In this document: in pieces, positions 1,101 through 60,786 of the stretch
Numbering within the stretch: the first letter of the stretch is position 1
How the letters are laid out: each line of letters opens with the position of its first letter
NCBI GenBank assembly: GCA_028706745.1
Contig: JAQTVM010000007.1
Span: 7,008 to 71,007, forward strand
From: Candidatus Nanoarchaeia archaeon
Lineage (GTDB): Archaea > Nanobdellota > Nanobdellia > SCGC-AAA011-G17 > GW2011-AR17
Direction: 5' to 3'
Length of the DNA: 64,000 bases
Position numbers and translations under genes: made by a program
The notes under the pieces: model-generated
The model's database searches: none
What the model saw: only the letters and a program-made list of their open reading frames with translations
What the model was told of the DNA's origin: nothing

Positions 1101-2087
1101 CTATGCCAGGATAATATCCTCGCAGCAATAGCCTTTTTTCTGCAATTCATCCCTTATCATGCCCTGCCTTACAATATCTTTCTCAAGAAGCTCTGCCCAA
1201 AGGCAGATATCCGCAAATATTGACGGAAACCCCTTTCTGCTTATTTCCGCAATAGTCGGACCAAGCGAATAAAAAAGAGGAGTAAGAATATCAGGCTCAA
1301 GCCTCTGCTTAAGGTAAAAGCAGGCTTCAATTGTCCTGTCAAGCCCTGCAAAAACAGGCTTCACTGAATTTTTCAGCTTTCTCTTTCTTAATGAAGATGC
1401 AGGCCAGCTATTATTGGCAAAGGAGCATATTGTTTTTATCTCAGCATTCCAGTAATTTGTCTTAAGCGTTTTTTTCAGGGATTCCTTTTCCCAGTTATCT
1501 ATTATGTAAGCGTGCATCTCATCAATAAACGTGTATTCGCATCTTGCCCTTAATTCATCATCAGAATAATTTATTTGCGCGCCATAACTGTCAATAAAAC
1601 AGCAGTTGCTTGAATAAAGCTGCCTGTTTGCATGAATCGCCTCGTGAGCGTATATTCCCTGTCCGCTTCCAAGCGTAAATCCGAATGCGGAATAATCAAG
1701 CTCACGCGGCCAATCCCCTAAAAAATACCCTGCAGGGACAAACATTCCGCAAGCCCACTTTTCCCATTCAAGCTTTTTCAAAAGCGTTTTCCATTTTTTC
1801 TCAGGCAGCACAATGCCGAAAAGAAAGCTCATTATTGCGTGCTTTCTTTCAAACGGCAGATAATTGCTCTCGATGTGCAGGGAAGAATAACCCGAAAAAT
1901 GCCCTGCTTTCAAAACTTTTTTTCCCTTGTACCTGTTCATTGCATCGGCAAACTCCTGAGAGAAATCCTTTGTCAGGGATAATTCGCGCGTGCGATTGAA
2001 CATTTTGCCATAAAGCTGAATAACATCATCCTTATGCTTAAGGTTTTGTTCAATGCAATTGAAAAGCCTTTCTTCAAGCGAAGGCAT
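1101..2087 (-). CDS. hypothetical HEXXH zincin-like protein (tandem paralog 1)
   Basis: 328-aa ORF containing HEAIH; C-terminal ~100 aa alignable by eye with the next ORF (…LRKRKLK…ILTPLFYSLGP…LQKKGYC…). Confidence 0.6.
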   Translation of the reverse strand: MPSLEERLFNCIEQNLKHKDDVIQLYGKMFNRTRELSLTKDFSQEFADAMNRYKGKKVLKAGHFSGYSSLHIESNYLPFERKHAIMSFLFGIVLPEKKWKTLLKKLEWEKWACGMFVPAGYFLGDWPRELDYSAFGFTLGSGQGIYAHEAIHANRQLYSSNCCFIDSYGAQINYSDDELRARCEYTFIDEMHAYIIDNWEKESLKKTLKTNYWNAEIKTICSFANNSWPASSLRKRKLKNSVKPVFAGLDRTIEACFYLKQRLEPDILTPLFYSLGPTIAEISRKGFPSIFADICLWAELLEKDIVRQGMIRDELQKKGYCCEDIILA

Positions 2088-54546: not shown

Positions 54547-56694
54547 TCAGCTTACCTTGCTTCCCTCAGCAATGTCATTCTCCACTGTTAATAGCCCTAA
54601 CTTTTCATTCTCTGAAGCGGCTAGCAGCATTCCGTTGCTTTCAATGCCTCTCAGGACTACTGGTTGCAAGTTTGTTATGACTATAATCTTCTTTCCCAGA
54701 ATCTTTTCAATAGGATAATGCTTTCTTATGCCTGCGACAATCTGCCTTTCTTCCATGCATTTCCCGAAGTTGACTAATAAGACGACTAATTTGTCTGCGT
54801 TCGGATGAGGCTGTGCTTTCACGACTTTCCCGACTCTTATGTCCATTTTTGCGAATTCGTCATAGCTGACGTGGTTGCATGCAGGGCATGCTTTTAACTG
54901 CACTGACGCCGGTTCCTTGTGTTCTTTAGGATGTTCTTGTTTCATCTTATTTTCCTCCTTGTTCATCATGCTTCTTTCTTCAAGCGGATGTCCGCTTTGC
55001 TTGTCAATTGGCTTGACTTCCTTTGTTAATCGCTCTTTGAAGTATTCAGTGACTTTTGAAGTTTTTGTTTTAAGCTCTTCCATTTCCTTGTCTTCTAATT
55101 TATGGAAGAGAAGCTCTATTTTGTTTAATTTCTGGTTTGGCTTGACTTGCAGTTTATTTATTTTTTTCCAGTCCTTGTCTTTGGCGTTAAGCATCTTAAG
55201 TATTTTTTCTGAAGTTTGGGGCAGGAACGGCTGGACTAGCAAGGCTATCATTCTTGACATGTTTGCGCAGACGTACAAGACGTTCTTTGACTTTTCCGGC
55301 ACTTTCCACGGCTCGTTGTCCTGGAAATACTTGTTTGCCATTGCTGACAGTCTCATTGTTTCTTCCAAAGCGCTTCTTAACTCAACTCTTTCAAAGGCGG
55401 CTTTTATGACTTCTATTTGCTTTTCAACCTGCTTTAGGAAGGTTTTGTCTGCTTTTGTTAAAACTGCCTTGGGGACTTTGTTGCCGTATTTGCTTACTAT
55501 GAATGTCAGTGAGCGGTTGACGAAGTTCCCAAGATTGCCTACCAGCTCGTTGTTTATCTTGTCCTGGAAGTCTTTCCAGTAGAACTCAGTGTCTTTTGTC
55601 TCCGGTATGAGGAATGTCAGATAATATCTCCAGTAGTCAGGGCTTAAGCCGGTGGATGCAAGGTTTTCGCAGAAAACTCCCCATTTTTGGCTTTTTGAAA
55701 ACTTGCGCCCCTCAAAGTTAAGGTACTGCTGCCCGACTACATTATATGGCAGATTAAATTTTCCGTTAGCCATAATCATGGCCGGAAAAAATATTGTATG
55801 GAAAGGTATGTTATCCTTGCCCAGAAAATTATATATCCTTGCATTCTTGTCCTGCCAGAAGAGCTTCCACTTTGTCTTGTTCCACTCCTTTGTTGATGAA
55901 ATATAGCCAATCGGGGCATCAACCCAGACGTAATAGACTAAGTCTTCAAAGCCCTTAAACTGCACAGGCACTCCCCACTTGAGGTTTCTTGTAATGCACC
56001 TTGGCTTTAATCCCTCATTAATCCAGCCCAAAGCCAGGCTTCTTACCTGCTGCCTCCAGTGCTTGTTGCCTTTAATCCACTTCTCCAGCTTTGGAGAAAG
56101 CTTTTCAAAGTCCAGGAAGAGGTGCTTTTTTTCCCTGAATTCAATGTTTTTTGAATTGCAGATTGCACAGTAAGGGTTCTTCAGCTTTTCAGGGTCAAGC
56201 ATTGTGCTGCAGCTCTCGCACTGGTCGCCCCTTGCCTTATCGTATCCGCAGTTTGGGCAGGTTCCTTCTATGTAACGGTCGGAAAGTTGTCTCCTGCATT
56301 CGTTGCAGAAGGGCAGTGAAATGGTTTTTTCTATTATATAGCCATTCTTGTATATCTGGGCCATGAAGTCCTGGGTTGTCTTGTAGTGTATCGGCTTGCT
56401 TGTTCTTGAGAAGTTGTCATAGCTGATGTTAAACCAGTCGTATATACCCTTATGAAGCTTAAAGTAGAAGTCGCAGAGCTCCTTGGGGGTAATGCCATAC
56501 TTGCTTGCAGCTATTTCACTTGCTGTCCCGTGCTCGTCTGTGCCGCCAATGAAGACAGTTTGAAAGCCTTGTAATCTGCAGTATCTTGCGAAGATGTCAG
56601 CCGGCAGCTGAGAGCCCGCTATATGCCCCAGATGGGGAAGATTATTCGTATAGGGCAGTGCACATGTTATGAGACGCCTTTCCTTATTTTTCAT
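54547..56694 (-). CDS. metG: methionyl-tRNA synthetase with C-terminal tRNA-binding (EMAP/Trbp111-like) domain
   Basis: 715 aa; HIGH motif PYTNNLPHLGH, KMSKS motif KFSKS, zinc knuckles CPNC…CESC, C-terminal OB-fold tRNA-binding domain. Confidence 0.9.
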   Translation of the reverse strand: MKNKERRLITCALPYTNNLPHLGHIAGSQLPADIFARYCRLQGFQTVFIGGTDEHGTASEIAASKYGITPKELCDFYFKLHKGIYDWFNISYDNFSRTSKPIHYKTTQDFMAQIYKNGYIIEKTISLPFCNECRRQLSDRYIEGTCPNCGYDKARGDQCESCSTMLDPEKLKNPYCAICNSKNIEFREKKHLFLDFEKLSPKLEKWIKGNKHWRQQVRSLALGWINEGLKPRCITRNLKWGVPVQFKGFEDLVYYVWVDAPIGYISSTKEWNKTKWKLFWQDKNARIYNFLGKDNIPFHTIFFPAMIMANGKFNLPYNVVGQQYLNFEGRKFSKSQKWGVFCENLASTGLSPDYWRYYLTFLIPETKDTEFYWKDFQDKINNELVGNLGNFVNRSLTFIVSKYGNKVPKAVLTKADKTFLKQVEKQIEVIKAAFERVELRSALEETMRLSAMANKYFQDNEPWKVPEKSKNVLYVCANMSRMIALLVQPFLPQTSEKILKMLNAKDKDWKKINKLQVKPNQKLNKIELLFHKLEDKEMEELKTKTSKVTEYFKERLTKEVKPIDKQSGHPLEERSMMNKEENKMKQEHPKEHKEPASVQLKACPACNHVSYDEFAKMDIRVGKVVKAQPHPNADKLVVLLVNFGKCMEERQIVAGIRKHYPIEKILGKKIIVITNLQPVVLRGIESNGMLLAASENEKLGLLTVENDIAEGSKVS
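56375..56446. repeat. 72-nt core shared 71/72 with 59200-59271 (inside metG codons ~84-107)
   Basis: direct comparison of the two metG 5' copies: flanks ~75-80% identical with many synonymous differences, core essentially identical. Confidence 0.7.
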
Positions 56695-56783
56695 AGGAAT
56701 ATAAAATGCTGATTGTGTTTATATTCTTTGCGCAGAGAATAAGTGCAATCCAAATACATTGCCCTAGGCTGCACACCAAGGCA

Positions 56784-56795
56784 TATATTTATATA
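56784..56795 (+). promoter_or_regulatory. TATA-like element in the divergent metG / radical-SAM intergenic region
   Basis: TATATTTATATA about 58 nt upstream of the rSAM ATG; GGGGAGTGA SD 7 nt before ATG. Confidence 0.3.
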
Positions 56796-56852
56796 GAAAT
56801 GAGATATTAGCATATAAGAATTAATTAGTTTCAAATAGGGGAGTGATTAAAG

Positions 56853-58199
56853 ATGGGATACTTGGCCTTGCCAAAAAACTGTAAAATTGCCGGCACAAAA
56901 TCGCATATTATGATACATAATATCAAGACAAACGAAACAATTAGGATTTACCCGGAATTATACGATTTTATCAGAAAAGCGCAGCACAGGAATATTCAAA
57001 AAATAGATGAATTGGCTTCAGGCGCGAATATCAGCAAGGCACTGCAATTCCTGTTTAAAGAAAAGGGCTTATGCCTGTCAGAGCAGGAATATGCCTTCCC
57101 TGAATTAAAAGAAGGGGTGTATCTCAAGGAAGCAATGATAGAGATAACAGGGCATTGCAATCTTGCCTGCAGGCACTGCTATATGGTGGACTACCAGAAG
57201 TATGAATTATCTAAAGAAGAAATGTACGACATCATAGACCAGCTGCATAAAATGGGCGCTACAGGCATGGCATTGTCAGGTGGCGAGCCCCTGACGCATC
57301 CTTATTTTGATGATATTGTCAATTATGCCATACTTAAGGGGATAAGGGTAGGCGAGATATACACAAACGGGACGCTAATCTCAAAAAAGTTTGACATATT
57401 AAAGAAGATAGCTGATAATTTCGGCAGAATAGAGGTTTATGTCAGCCTTGACGGAATAGGGAAAACGCACGATTCTTTCCGCGGGCAGCCCGGGGCATTT
57501 GAAAAGACAATAGAAGGGATAAAGCTCCTGAAAAAATTAGGGGTTCAGATTAATATAACGTCCACGCTGTCAAGGCATAATATAGGGGAAATATTCGAAT
57601 TCTATGAGTTTGTCAAAACGCTAGGCATTTATAACTGGCACGTATCCCAGCCTTTCGGCATTGGCAGATGGACAACCATAGAAGAGGACATGCGCATCAG
57701 CCCAGGCGAGGAATGCGGCATATATATTGAGATAATAAAACGCTATCTGCGCGACAAGCCTGAAATGCACATTAACTTTTCGGAATTTTTTAACAGCATA
57801 ATCCTTGAGAAAGGGCTCCGCTTTTTTTCATGCGACAGCCATGTCTGCCCGTATGCCAGGAACAGGTGCGGCATCAAGCCCAACAAGGACATAACATGGT
57901 GCACTTCACTTAATGAGCAGATTGTCGGGAACCTAGGCAATAACAGCCTGTCAGGGATTTGGAATTCGGAAAGCATGCGCAAAATGAAGGACTTAAAAGT
58001 TGAAAATCTCAAATCCTGCAAGAACTGCAGGTACATGCACATCTGCGGAGGCGGCTGCCGCGTTTATTCCCAGCTGTACAACAAGGACGTCCTAAGCGAA
58101 GATCCAAGAAAATGCTTTTTTGTAAGGGAATTTTATGCAAAAGTGGTGCCAATGCTACCCAAAGATTTAAAAGCTAGCATTCTTAATAAGGTAGAATAA
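56853..58199 (+). CDS. radical SAM/SPASM-domain peptide-modifying enzyme with N-terminal RRE-like extension
   Basis: 448 aa; CNLACRHC (Cx3Cx2C); C-terminal SPASM Cys motifs (CDSHVCPY…C…CKNCRYMHICGGGCR); ~95-aa N-terminal domain before the rSAM core. Confidence 0.85.
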   Translation: MGYLALPKNCKIAGTKSHIMIHNIKTNETIRIYPELYDFIRKAQHRNIQKIDELASGANISKALQFLFKEKGLCLSEQEYAFPELKEGVYLKEAMIEITGHCNLACRHCYMVDYQKYELSKEEMYDIIDQLHKMGATGMALSGGEPLTHPYFDDIVNYAILKGIRVGEIYTNGTLISKKFDILKKIADNFGRIEVYVSLDGIGKTHDSFRGQPGAFEKTIEGIKLLKKLGVQINITSTLSRHNIGEIFEFYEFVKTLGIYNWHVSQPFGIGRWTTIEEDMRISPGEECGIYIEIIKRYLRDKPEMHINFSEFFNSIILEKGLRFFSCDSHVCPYARNRCGIKPNKDITWCTSLNEQIVGNLGNNSLSGIWNSESMRKMKDLKVENLKSCKNCRYMHICGGGCRVYSQLYNKDVLSEDPRKCFFVREFYAKVVPMLPKDLKASILNKVE

Positions 58200-58211
58200 G
58201 GAGGTTATGAA

Positions 58212-58355
58212 ATGAAAGCCAACAAGAAGACAGAAAAGAAAGTAGCCAAGGACGCAGCTGAAGTTCCGGAAGAAAAAGAGGAAAAGCTTGCGGAAAAAGA
58301 GGAAATGCTGCCGACATTGAAAGGCTCCATGAACTCTTACAACGCGAATTGCTAG
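58212..58355 (+). CDS. 47-aa putative RiPP precursor peptide (not in ORF track)
   Basis: AAGGAGG SD then ATG 12 nt after the rSAM stop; MKANKKTEKKVAKDAAEVPEEKEEKLAEKEEMLPTLKGSMNSYNANC, a K/E-rich leader-like region followed by a short C-terminal core ending in Cys. Confidence 0.5.
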   Translation: MKANKKTEKKVAKDAAEVPEEKEEKLAEKEEMLPTLKGSMNSYNANC

Positions 58356-58356
58356 A

Positions 58357-59067
58357 ATGTGCACATTTGGCATCAAGCTAACTGATAAAAGAAGGTATAT
58401 TTTTAAGAACTTAGATGTTCATAAAGTTATTTTCAGCTATTCTTTGCCTATAATAGACAAGAATGTATTGAAATTCTACATCCCGGGAAAAAATGGCATC
58501 TGGACAGGCATAAACCGGAAAGGCCTGCTTATCCAGACTGCAGAGCATACTGGCAATTTAATCTCAAAATGCAAGATTAACACATGGCCTATTTTTGAAA
58601 GAATGCTTGAGCATTGCAATGATACATATTCAGGTTTGGCATTTCTTATGAGCCGGTTTAAAGAGGCCAAAATGGACCTGCCTGGAAGCATCCTGCTGTC
58701 TGACAGGAATACGTCCATCATAGCAGAGTACTATCCCTCTGTATGGGGCATTAAAATAATAGATGATTGTGATGCAAGAGCAGGGATTTTTGGAGTATTA
58801 ACATCCTTCAATAAAAAGCCCAAGCCTGACAGGGCGCATCTTGCTGTCCGATTAATGTCCAAAATAAAAGATAAAAATGCAGTTGACAGCTTAAAGGCAT
58901 TATGCAGAAAGCATAACATGAAGAATTCTATTTGCCGGCATAAAGGTCCTAATACCAATGGTTCTATCATAATGGATATTTCAGAAAAAGCTGCAATAAT
59001 ACATTATGTTCTTAACAGCCATCCCTGTAAATCTGAGTATAAAAGAATAGTATTTGAATTATACTAG
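58357..59067 (+). CDS. Ntn-hydrolase (C45/choloylglycine-hydrolase-like) with N-terminal Cys nucleophile
   Basis: 236 aa beginning MCTFG… (Cys2 exposed after Met removal, as in Ntn acyl/peptide hydrolases); starts 1 nt after the peptide stop. Confidence 0.55.
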   Translation: MCTFGIKLTDKRRYIFKNLDVHKVIFSYSLPIIDKNVLKFYIPGKNGIWTGINRKGLLIQTAEHTGNLISKCKINTWPIFERMLEHCNDTYSGLAFLMSRFKEAKMDLPGSILLSDRNTSIIAEYYPSVWGIKIIDDCDARAGIFGVLTSFNKKPKPDRAHLAVRLMSKIKDKNAVDSLKALCRKHNMKNSICRHKGPNTNGSIIMDISEKAAIIHYVLNSHPCKSEYKRIVFELY

Positions 59068-59516
59068 TTATTGCAGTTGGGGCAGGTTCCTTCTATGTAC
59101 CTGTCTGATAACTGCCTTTTGCATTCATTGCAGAAGGGAAGGGAGATGCTTTTTTCTATTATATAGCCGTTTTTGTGTATTTTTGCTATTACTTCCTGTG
59201 TTGTCTTGTAGTGTATTGGCTTGCTTGTTCTTGAGAAGTTGTCATAGCTGATGTTAAACCAGTCGTATATATCTTTATGTATCTTGTAGTAGAAATCACA
59301 TAATTCTCTGGGAGTAATGCCGTATTTCTGCGCAGCTATCTCGCTTGCAGTGCCATGCTCATCTGTTCCGCCTATGAAGATGGTTTGATATCCTTGCAGT
59401 CTGTTGTATCTGGCGAAGATGTCAGCTGGGAGATGAGAGCCTACGATGTTTCCTAAGTGTGGTACGTTGTTAGTGTAAGGAAGTGCGGATGTGATTAATC
59501 TTCTTTCCTTAGTCAT
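59064..59516 (-). pseudogene. 5'-terminal 150-codon duplicate of metG (truncated MetRS fragment)
   Basis: MTKERRLITSALPYTNNVPHLGN… about 80% identical to MetRS aa 1-148, ends TCPNCNN*, abutting the convergent hydrolase stop. Confidence 0.7.
59200..59271. repeat. second copy of the 72-nt metG core (see 56375-56446)
   Basis: 71/72 identity. Confidence 0.7.
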
Positions 59517-59599
59517 AAGTGTAGGAAAGAGAGAATAGAGTTTATAAGGTTTATTGGTGGGTTGGGAAAGCCACAGGGCTTGCAGCCCTGAACCCGCCG

Positions 59600-60199
59600 T
59601 TAGCTTTTCTTCAGCATCAGCTCTTTAACCAATGTCAAAAATTCCCTTGCTCTTTTCTCTGATGTTTCTGCCTTTGATTTTATTGCTATCATTCCCATCT
59701 CATATGTGAAATCCCTTCTCTTTCCCATTTCCAGCCTTACTGATTCTATGCTGTTTCTTGCCTCTTCTTCAGCTGTCCTTAAAAGTTCTGACGATTCCCT
59801 TTCGGCAATGCTGTACTGCTCAAGAATGTGCTTTGTGAGCTTCTTGTCGCAGTCAAGAAAATAATACACCAATGCGTGGCAAGTTAATGCGTGGATTCCG
59901 TAATCTGTCTTGATTTTATGGTTATATGCTGCAAGCAATGCTGTTGCTGCATAGAACATTGAATAATATCCTGTGTTAATTGCCCACATGTAGGATTCAT
60001 ATGCCTGCGGAAGATTCAGGAGTTTCTTTGCTTCGCTGCTTTTTGAAAGTTTTATCAATGCAGAGCAGGTTTGCAGCGAAGATTCTGATTTGCTGAGAAA
60101 GAATTCTGCAAATCCGGATTCGGGCTTTACTATTGCGCCTTTCTGGATGAGCCCTGTAATAACTGCCCTTGATTTTTTTATATCCTTGTCTGTCATCAT
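59600..60199 (-). CDS. HEPN-domain protein (paralog of 26137-26763)
   Basis: 199 aa; GYYSMFYAATALLAAYNHKIKTDYGIHALTCHALVYYF parallels the first HEPN. Confidence 0.6.
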   Translation of the reverse strand: MMTDKDIKKSRAVITGLIQKGAIVKPESGFAEFFLSKSESSLQTCSALIKLSKSSEAKKLLNLPQAYESYMWAINTGYYSMFYAATALLAAYNHKIKTDYGIHALTCHALVYYFLDCDKKLTKHILEQYSIAERESSELLRTAEEEARNSIESVRLEMGKRRDFTYEMGMIAIKSKAETSEKRAREFLTLVKELMLKKS

Positions 60200-60786
60200 T
60201 TTGCCATCAGCCTGCAGTAATCCTCAAAGCCTGCAAGAATTATGTGATTGCCTTCAAGCTCATTCACCACGTTCAATCCTTTCTTTTGCCTCATTTCATT
60301 GAAGCTTTCCTCCGAGACTGAACTTATGTGCGTGTTGTATGACAGTGTGCTTAAAGCTGAGTTTGCTTCCTGCTCTGTTTCTTCGGGGTTTTTGGAAACA
60401 AGAAGTATGTCAATGTCGCTGTCTTTTGTTGCTTTTCCTTTTGCATGGCTTCCGAAGAGGATTGCTGTGCAGAATGAAGTGCTTATCTTTTCAAGCTCTT
60501 TTGCAACGAGCTGTATCTTATTGCTGTTTTTGATGAAATCTCTTGTTCTGAGGCTTTCCACGTATGCGTAAAGCGCTGTGTCTGTTTGCAGGTTTATGCT
60601 GCATATGCTGCTGTTGCCCTGCTTTGCTATTGAGAGGATATTTTCTTTTTGCATCTTAATCGCCTCCTCGTAGGCCTGCCTGTAGTTTATTTTTGCGTTT
60701 TTTGAAAGCGCTCTTATTGTATGCGTTTCTTTCGGGCTTGCGAGCATTGTCTTCAGGATTGATATTCTTGAGTTTGTTATTACCAT
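60196..60786 (-). CDS. minimal nucleotidyltransferase with N-terminal wHTH (paralog of 25517-26140)
   Basis: 196 aa; FGSHAKGKATKDSDIDILLVS; 4-nt overlap with the downstream HEPN gene. Confidence 0.8.
   Translation of the reverse strand: MVITNSRISILKTMLASPKETHTIRALSKNAKINYRQAYEEAIKMQKENILSIAKQGNSSICSINLQTDTALYAYVESLRTRDFIKNSNKIQLVAKELEKISTSFCTAILFGSHAKGKATKDSDIDILLVSKNPEETEQEANSALSTLSYNTHISSVSEESFNEMRQKKGLNVVNELEGNHIILAGFEDYCRLMAK

Follow-up and report, generated by a model that had tools for sequence, protein, structure and literature searches.

Given a short open reading frame (ORF) located immediately after a gene for a radical S-adenosylmethionine (rSAM) enzyme, it is reasonable to ask whether the frame is a true gene and, if so, whether its product is the peptide on which the enzyme acts. 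We examined this question for a micro-ORF (58212..58355, plus strand) in a 64,000-nucleotide stretch of DNA from a Candidatus Nanoarchaeia archaeon (contig JAQTVM010000007.1), hereafter called the window. An earlier note, made from the sequence of the window, had read this ORF as the precursor gene of a peptide that is synthesized by ribosomes and then modified post-translationally (RiPP). We conclude with moderate confidence that the micro-ORF is a genuine gene and that its product serves as precursor or substrate peptide for the rSAM enzyme encoded 12 nucleotides (nt) upstream. This function is deduced only from the architecture of the enzyme and from the adjacency of the two genes. On the basis of its sequence features, the locus is most suitably classed as a sequence-orphan RiPP system that depends on a RiPP recognition element (RRE) and a radical SAM/SPASM enzyme, and that carries an unusual N-terminal nucleophile (Ntn) hydrolase as a partner.

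Coding Status of the Micro-ORF

The micro-ORF comprises 47 codons followed by a TAG stop codon, and its translation is MKANKKTEKKVAKDAAEVPEEKEEKLAEKEEMLPTLKGSMNSYNANC. The rSAM gene lies on the same strand and ends 12 nt before the micro-ORF begins. At the other end, a single nucleotide separates the TAG codon from the ATG (58357) that opens the neighboring hydrolase gene. Thus, the micro-ORF fills 144 nt of the 157-nt gap between its two neighbors. A Shine–Dalgarno (SD)-like sequence, AAGGAGG, is located at positions 58198..58204 of the plus strand, 7 nt upstream of the micro-ORF start codon, where it overlaps the TAA stop codon of the rSAM gene (58197-58199). The position of the ORF, its translation, and this ribosome-binding sequence all agree exactly with the description given in the earlier note. 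The same note had called the ORF unannotated, which is accurate for the six-frame ORF track that accompanied it, where frames shorter than 60 amino acids are not listed. However, the ORF is present in the public record of this metagenome-assembled genome, in which PGAP called it under the name [quoted passage not shown] It is also called as a gene on two Logan contigs, both of which are identical to the window.

The peptide is sharply divided in composition, as had been noticed previously. Charged residues account for 21 of the first 31 amino acids (68%), compared to only one of the remaining 16. We therefore distinguish a putative K/E-rich leader (amino acids 1-31; 58212..58304, plus strand) from a putative core with the sequence MLPTLKGSMNSYNANC (amino acids 32-47; 58305..58352, plus strand), using a boundary that is set by composition only. 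The sole cysteine of the peptide is its final residue, Cys47, and the last four residues (N44-A45-N46-C47, encoded at 58341-58352) match the pattern NxxC. The core has no Trp and no KxxxW arrangement, and the peptide carries no motif of the GVY or E...Y type. An internal ATG at 58305 (Met32) is preceded by GAGGAA, and initiation at this codon would yield a 16-residue leaderless version of MLPTLKGSMNSYNANC. This internal start is probably unused, because GAGGAA lies only ~2-3 nt away, closer than a typical SD would be.

Several statistics are consistent with a protein-coding function. Of 5000 dinucleotide shuffles of the 157-nt gap, 45 contained a plus-strand ORF of at least 47 codons, as did 33 of 5000 random sequences generated with the composition of the window, which places the probability of an ORF of this length at p ~0.007-0.009. 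The heptamer AAGGAGG occurs six times on the plus strand of the 64-kb window, and strong SD sequences (at least 5 bases) precede only nine of its 53 long ORFs. Because strong SDs are infrequent in this window, the presence of AAGGAGG at an ideal spacing is informative. We also evaluated codon usage with a log-odds model trained on 50 long ORFs located outside the cassette that is formed by the rSAM, peptide, and hydrolase genes. The micro-ORF scores 0.49 bits per codon in its own frame, versus -0.90 and -0.39 for the two alternative sense frames and ~0.1 on the antisense strand. Real genes score 0.36 on average, and a value of 0.49 or more is reached by only 0.9% of a set of 111 spurious ORFs that span 35-70 amino acids. 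Finally, no Rfam element was detected across positions 56600-59600 at E ≤1, and the proposal that the region serves as an RNA element rather than a gene was rejected on this basis. The ORF, its SD sequence, its tight packing between neighbors, and its coding-like statistics are direct observations, and we favor the reading that the micro-ORF is a translated gene.

Architecture of the Upstream rSAM Enzyme

The gene preceding the micro-ORF (56853..58199, plus strand) encodes a protein of 448 amino acids that matches the Pfam models PF04055 (Radical_SAM), PF13186 (SPASM), and PF13353 (Fer4_12). Its CxxxCxxC motif (C102/C106/C109) is encoded at 57156-57179 of the plus strand, and the SPASM cysteines (C332, C350, C389, C392, C398, C402, and C421) are encoded at about 57828-58115 of the same strand. 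When the protein is aligned with 42 homologs, every one of C102, C106, C109, C350, C389, C392, C398, C402, and C421 is invariant, with C332 nearly so.

The earlier note had also invoked an RRE-type domain that would bind the leader, and such a domain is supported by several comparisons. The predicted RRE occupies roughly amino acids 1-76 (56853-57080, plus strand). PF05402 (PqqD) itself gave no match to the protein. Over residues 1-93, however, the enzyme can be aligned with the N-terminal domains of homologs that are positive for PF05402, and profile–profile comparison of the N terminus with these homologs by hhalign yielded a probability of 96.2% (E 2e-9). An AlphaFold2 (AF2) model of the enzyme (pLDDT 88.3) places strands at residues 10-15, 19-23, and 28-32, followed by helices at residues 34-43, 48-54, and 58-71. 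In this model, the order of strands and helices across amino acids 3-71 is that of the RRE topology. A Foldseek search of the PDB with the same model returned SuiB first (including the SuiA-bound structure 5v1t), followed by SkfB and CteB, with ~450-460 aligned columns. Given this alignment length, the N-terminal domain is included in the matches to all three maturases. The enzyme anSME is also among the structural matches, and SkfB is the best PDB match by sequence. Because the protein combines radical SAM and SPASM domains with an RRE that is supported by both hhalign and AF2, and because its structural matches are SuiB, SkfB, and CteB, it is built like a leader-dependent RiPP maturase.

The public annotation of this enzyme (P0001) is 429 amino acids long, or 96% of the 448-residue ORF, and begins 19 codons downstream of the start used here. 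The longer ORF has the sequence GGGGAG located 10-15 nt upstream of its start codon, and it contributes N-terminal beta strands to the predicted RRE. The public start may therefore truncate this domain.

Small Cysteine-Containing ORFs beside Related rSAM Genes

In a search of 5.8 billion proteins, the nearest non-self rSAM sequence shares 35% identity with the window enzyme. Homologs that share 27-35% identity and have an RRE-type N terminus are encoded next to small ORFs that contain cysteine. Small ORFs are present in the neighborhoods of P0002, P0003, P0004, P0007, P0020, P0022, and P0044, and none of these resembles the micro-ORF. On several contigs, a small ORF resides beside the rSAM gene (L003, 7298-7402, minus strand; L005/L006, 2643-2774, plus strand; L008/L009, about 1827-2018, plus strand), and the encoded peptides have in common the motif (I/V)xE(E/A)(L/V)E(E/D)(V/I)xPKHPxC. 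These PKHPxC peptides match no Pfam or NCBIfam model, and on sequence grounds they look like an undescribed precursor family that is unrelated to the micro-ORF. Other arrangements were also observed. L007 carries a divergent ORF of 61 amino acids that is rich in Cys and Gly. L014 (141-2971) has a tandem pair of rSAM/SPASM genes and, after them, a 51-residue ORF with a single cysteine, MRKLELHVSPENAIKLDMPVVTVKSHINYHGAACTEMEIRSVNNITMNKWE, and the first of these two enzymes has the N-terminal domain most similar to that of the window enzyme. Judging from these neighborhoods, the theme that members of this rSAM clade act on adjacent small Cys-containing peptides holds.

The window contains no PKHP-type peptide. 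A 34-residue ORF at 56706..56810 was considered as a rival substrate and was rejected, since it lies across the divergent promoter region, no SD sequence precedes it, and its codon score is poor (0.15). The micro-ORF is therefore the only credible small gene of the cassette. The precursor assignment made in the earlier note thus gains support from the RRE-bearing enzyme, from the status of the micro-ORF as the sole small gene of the cassette, and from the Cys-containing ORFs of the relatives. In contrast, the change in composition on which that assignment had been founded is not diagnostic when taken alone.

A Divergent Ntn Hydrolase Encoded Downstream

The gene following the micro-ORF (58357..59067, plus strand) encodes a protein of 236 amino acids that we assign to the C45/AAT family of Ntn hydrolases by phmmer, alignment, AF2, and Foldseek analyses, with Cys2 (MCTFG...) as the predicted nucleophile. 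The protein matches no Pfam or NCBIfam model, including PF03417 and NF040521, and a word-indexed protein search recovered only the protein itself. An exhaustive phmmer search identified 38 relatives at E <1e-3. Among 31 aligned family members, C2, G5, K17, D20, and T200 are invariant and a SICRHG motif is nearly so, and 23 of the 31 aligned relatives match PF03417 (AAT, peptidase C45). The AF2 model (pLDDT 92.7) matches 3gvz, isopenicillin-N acyltransferase (IAT; 2x1d), TANGO2, NAAA, and bile-salt hydrolases (BSH) with a Foldseek probability of 1.00. By transitive homology and predicted fold, then, the protein is a divergent Cys-Ntn hydrolase, and we consider it a candidate peptidase or amidase of the cassette.

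Relatives of the hydrolase are encoded next to M28/M42/M20 aminopeptidase genes (L011, 3883-7256; L012, 1006-5798; L013, 1036-2798), and these gene neighbors suggest a peptide-catabolism module. On L011, the gene for the relative is also located directly upstream of a methionyl-tRNA synthetase gene, which is probably a coincidence.

A Proposed Maturation Route and Its Known Counterparts

We propose that the rSAM, peptide, and hydrolase genes are expressed as one transcript that originates in the divergent metG/rSAM intergenic region, and that translation of the peptide starts from a strong SD of its own. The N-terminal RRE of the enzyme would then bind the leader through its charged part, the MLPTL segment, or both. 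Subsequently, the radical SAM core would abstract a hydrogen atom in the core MLPTLKGSMNSYNANC, and a SPASM auxiliary cluster would assist cross-link formation. Our leading guess for the product is a thioether between the sulfur of Cys47 and a carbon of Asn44, in which NANC would serve as an NxxC motif like that of the NxxcA/NxxcB system. This use of NANC is offered as a lead only and is drawn by analogy. Other chemistries, including cyclophane formation at Tyr43, oxidation of the C-terminal Cys, and decarboxylation, are also conceivable. The Cys-Ntn hydrolase would then cut an amide bond either to remove the leader or to trim the product.

The thioether proposal draws on the ranthipeptide system NxxcA/NxxcB from Streptococcus orisratti, in which NxxcB links the beta-carbon of Asn20 in NxxcA to Cys23 through one thioether (PMC8326336, PMC9389541). 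In both systems, the precursor or candidate precursor is short, its only Cys stands in an N-x-x-C arrangement near the C terminus, and there is a single rSAM/SPASM enzyme, a likeness that is one of motif and analogy. In contrast to the streptococcal system, however, the window comes from an archaeal host and has no shp/rgg quorum-sensing context, its Cys is the terminal residue of the peptide, the partner protein is an Ntn hydrolase, and the NxxC match is near chance expectation.

Other characterized systems resemble the cassette more in the enzyme than in the peptide. The CteA/CteB (SCIFF ranthipeptide) and SkfA/SkfB (sactipeptide) pairs likewise employ RRE-rSAM enzymes with a SPASM (or twitch) domain, and CteB and SkfB are among the top structural matches of the window enzyme. 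In both of these systems, thioether formation occurs with Cys as the donor. SCIFF peptides carry six Cys in ~45 residues, compared to one Cys here, and the window enzyme scores only 80.6 bits against the PapB model (cut-off 340). Its StsB score is similarly far below the cut-off of that model (116 versus 625 bits), and the micro-ORF peptide matches no NCBIfam or Pfam model. SuiA/SuiB, which produces the Lys-Trp carbon–carbon cross-link of streptide, provides the top full-length Foldseek match, with the RRE included (E ~2e-18, ~455 columns), and there too a small precursor gene adjoins the maturase gene. However, the core of the micro-ORF peptide lacks both Trp and KxxxW, and identity in the structural alignment is just 16-17%.

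The mycofactocin (MftA/MftB/MftC/MftE) and pyrroloquinoline quinone (PQQ; PqqA/D/E) pathways offer a different kind of parallel. In these pathways, an RRE and an rSAM/SPASM enzyme operate on a small peptide at its extreme C terminus, the modified end is set free by a hydrolase, and an exporter is not needed. Unlike these pathways, the RRE is fused to the enzyme in the window, and the hydrolase is of the Cys-Ntn C45 type rather than a creatininase-family protein like MftE. The enzyme also scores only 104 bits against the MftC model (cut-off 265), and the peptide ends in NANC rather than GVY. The PKHPxC cassettes described above include the closest rSAM relatives and share with the window a small Cys-containing ORF beside the rSAM gene. 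Their peptides differ from that of the micro-ORF in having an acidic leader and the PKHPxC motif, and none of these loci encodes an Ntn hydrolase.

Evidence against the Substrate Assignment and Alternative Explanations

A number of observations weigh against the assignment of the micro-ORF peptide as the rSAM substrate. The word-indexed search of 5.8 billion proteins with the peptide recovered only the peptide itself. Likewise, six 8-mer peptide patterns used to search JGI metagenome contigs gave 600 pattern matches, of which tblastn confirmed none. Because the peptide has no homologs and its other copies are identical, there is no sign of selection on the reading frame or on the core. The codon score serves as supporting evidence only, because a K/E-rich composition inflates it, and the NxxC match is near chance, because the tail is rich in Asn (3 of 16 residues). 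The micro-ORF peptide also shows no similarity to the PKHP family (hmmsearch score <0). Since the nearest rSAM relatives use unrelated peptides, the identity of the substrate cannot be transferred by homology.

The two flanking proteins contribute further points of this kind. No NCBIfam equivalog model matches the rSAM enzyme at its cut-off, with the best model, NirJ2, giving 141 bits against a cut-off of 500, and the top scores come from generic NirJ/AhbD-type models. Lower scores were obtained with StsB (116; cut-off 625), DynA (116), MftC (TIGR03962; 104; cut-off 265), PapB (80.6; cut-off 340), and AlbA (80), and the anSME model is also among the matches below cut-off. The enzyme consequently falls into no named maturase family. 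The hydrolase retains all the conserved residues of its family except for N143G, a position at which at least 90% of family members have Asn. In the three hydrolase relatives with usable contigs, the adjoining genes encode M28/M42 aminopeptidases and never an rSAM enzyme, which makes the rSAM–hydrolase pairing peculiar to this locus. The contig of a fourth relative was too short for its gene neighbors to be judged. The cassette includes no transporter or immunity gene. In addition, judging from title and abstract, a full-text literature search on Ntn hydrolases, RiPPs, and precursor peptides retrieved no description of an Ntn hydrolase within a RiPP cassette.

The peptide also has no match in Pfam or NCBIfam, and searches with the peptide, the hydrolase, or the rSAM enzyme detected no homolog of the three-gene cassette. 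Because the peptide has no relatives in public data, a substrate role cannot be confirmed by comparison.

Given these observations, other explanations must be weighed. The micro-ORF might encode a real small K/E-rich protein that is not a substrate, while the enzyme acts on a product encoded elsewhere or on the hydrolase. The coding signals are good, yet adjacency alone ties the peptide to the enzyme, different peptides accompany the closest rSAM homologs, and some rSAM/SPASM enzymes mature proteins, as does anSME, which is among the structural matches. We nonetheless consider this explanation unlikely. Enzymes of the RRE-bearing rSAM/SPASM type, SuiB and CteB among them, characteristically take as substrate a small peptide encoded next to them (PMC8326336), the three genes seem to have been gained jointly as a unit of ~2.8 kb (see below), and the hydrolase is unlikely to need maturation by an rSAM enzyme because its relatives function without an rSAM partner. 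A quite unlikely alternative, drawn purely by analogy with the logic of mycofactocin, PQQ, and 3-thiaglutamate biosynthesis, is that the peptide is a scaffold whose Cys47 or NANC end is modified by the rSAM enzyme and is then clipped off by the Cys-Ntn amidohydrolase as a small molecule or cofactor. The location of the sole Cys at the very C terminus fits such a scheme, as does the cassette’s makeup, with neither exporter nor immunity function encoded. Moreover, the typical substrates of Ntn hydrolases of the C45/BSH/NAAA type are small amide conjugates, not long leaders, and the folds matched by the window protein are those of IAT, NAAA, and BSH. The MftC and anSME models do match the enzyme, but below their cut-offs (well below in the case of MftC), the peptide has no motif of the GVY or E...Y type, and the hydrolase family elsewhere looks like a component of general peptide catabolism, with M28/M42 neighbors.

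Two other proposals dispense with an independent peptide gene. We judge it very unlikely that the micro-ORF is a chance frame, in which a purine-rich spacer happens to remain open without yielding a functional product. The lack of homologs means that purifying selection is not in evidence, purine-rich, K/E-coding sequence of low complexity lifts the codon score, and 0.7-0.9% of shuffled gaps hold an ORF this long. Against this, the micro-ORF has a strong SD with ideal spacing in a genome where such sequences are infrequent, it occupies nearly the entire gap with stop/start junctions at both sides, and its codon score exceeds that of 99% of spurious ORFs. A chance frame would also leave the RRE-containing maturase of an isolated cassette with no substrate gene. 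That the micro-ORF is instead a detached pro-peptide of the hydrolase, separated from it by a frameshift or sequencing error, has a negligible probability. Many Ntn hydrolases do mature by auto-cleavage of an N-terminal pro-segment, which exposes the Cys, and a few members of this family have 3-10 amino acids before that residue. However, the ORFs beginning at 58212 and 58357 are in different frames with a TAG codon between them, the sequence is identical in two independent Logan assemblies, and most of the 31 aligned family members start at M-C, with the longest extension reaching ~10 amino acids compared to 47 here. A split pro-peptide was rejected on these three findings.

We therefore retain the assignment of the micro-ORF peptide as the probable rSAM substrate. 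If this assignment is true, then the locus is a sequence-orphan radical SAM RiPP cassette in Nanoarchaeia, a DPANN lineage whose members have reduced genomes and a host-dependent lifestyle. Among the publications retrieved by our searches, no title or abstract concerns a radical SAM RiPP from the DPANN archaea. Chemistry or processing may differ from that of known ranthipeptides and sactipeptides, because the peptide has a single terminal Cys and because an Ntn hydrolase takes the place of a leader protease or transporter. Should the peptide prove not to be the substrate, the micro-ORF is merely an annotated hypothetical small gene.

Genomic Context and Possible Origin of the Cassette

The rSAM, peptide, and hydrolase genes form a compact, co-directional cassette with about 2.2 kb of coding sequence. 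Because only three genes are involved, the cassette is a cheap target for heterologous co-expression. A TATA-box-like sequence, TTTATATA, is located at 56788..56795 of the plus strand, 58 nt upstream of the rSAM start codon, and on the basis of its sequence it is a possible operon promoter. A scan for bacterial (sigma-70-type) promoters and terminators, which is unsuited to an archaeon, returned counts no higher than those for shuffled sequence.

The cassette is flanked by a direct repeat derived from metG. Upstream is the intact metG gene (54547..56694, minus strand), whose 5′ end (56248..56686, minus strand) forms one copy of the repeat. Downstream is a metG 5′ fragment of 150 amino acids (59064..59516, minus strand) that forms the other. 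The two copies share 86% amino acid identity, and nucleotide identity is ~79% between 56248-56686 and 59073-59511. In the closest relatives (L016-L018), metG is 80-86% identical at the amino acid level. The fragment, together with 40-60 nt upstream of it, aligns with the gene start and upstream region of these relatives. Its identities to the three relatives are 83.2, 82.8, and 74.4%, compared to 80.2, 77.0, and 73.2% for the 5′ end of the intact gene. This advantage is concentrated in the first ~75 nt and, in the comparison with L017, in the upstream region as well. By these sequence comparisons, the native state appears to be better preserved in the fragment than in the 5′ end of the intact gene.

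Additional features of the region bear on how the cassette arrived. Both the rSAM and hydrolase genes are absent from all eight of the related loci (8/8), and the 1016 nt upstream of metG on L017 have no similarity to either gene. The codon scores of the rSAM and hydrolase genes are in the bottom 4-6% of window genes. The region carries no integrase gene. These patterns suggest a Campbell-type insertion into metG of an element of ~2.8 kb that consisted of the three genes and a surrogate 5′ end (plus promoter) for metG, an essential gene. Because the three genes were apparently acquired as a unit, they are likely to function together. A viral or mobile origin was considered and rejected: searches of IMG/VR viral contigs detected no relatives of the rSAM enzyme or the hydrolase, and the PADLOC pVip matches to the rSAM enzyme are confined to the generic radical SAM core. 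We have also entertained the combined proposal that such a self-contained cassette of ~2.8 kb, whose insertion replaced the 5′ end of metG in a DPANN archaeon with a minimal genome, releases the modified C terminus of the peptide from its scaffold, and would thus constitute a RiPP-derived metabolite pathway that pairs an RRE-rSAM-SPASM enzyme with a C45 Ntn hydrolase. Our full-text literature search brought up no published example of this enzyme pairing. This proposal is very doubtful at present.

Immediately beyond the displaced metG fragment, an overlapping pair of genes occupies positions 59600-60786 of the minus strand. These encode a protein of 199 amino acids with no family match and a nucleotidyltransferase of 196 amino acids. 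The pair matches PDC-M05A/B, a candidate system in PADLOC, and has a weak match to the MntA antitoxin. Judging from these matches, it resembles an MNT/HEPN-like toxin–antitoxin or defense pair.

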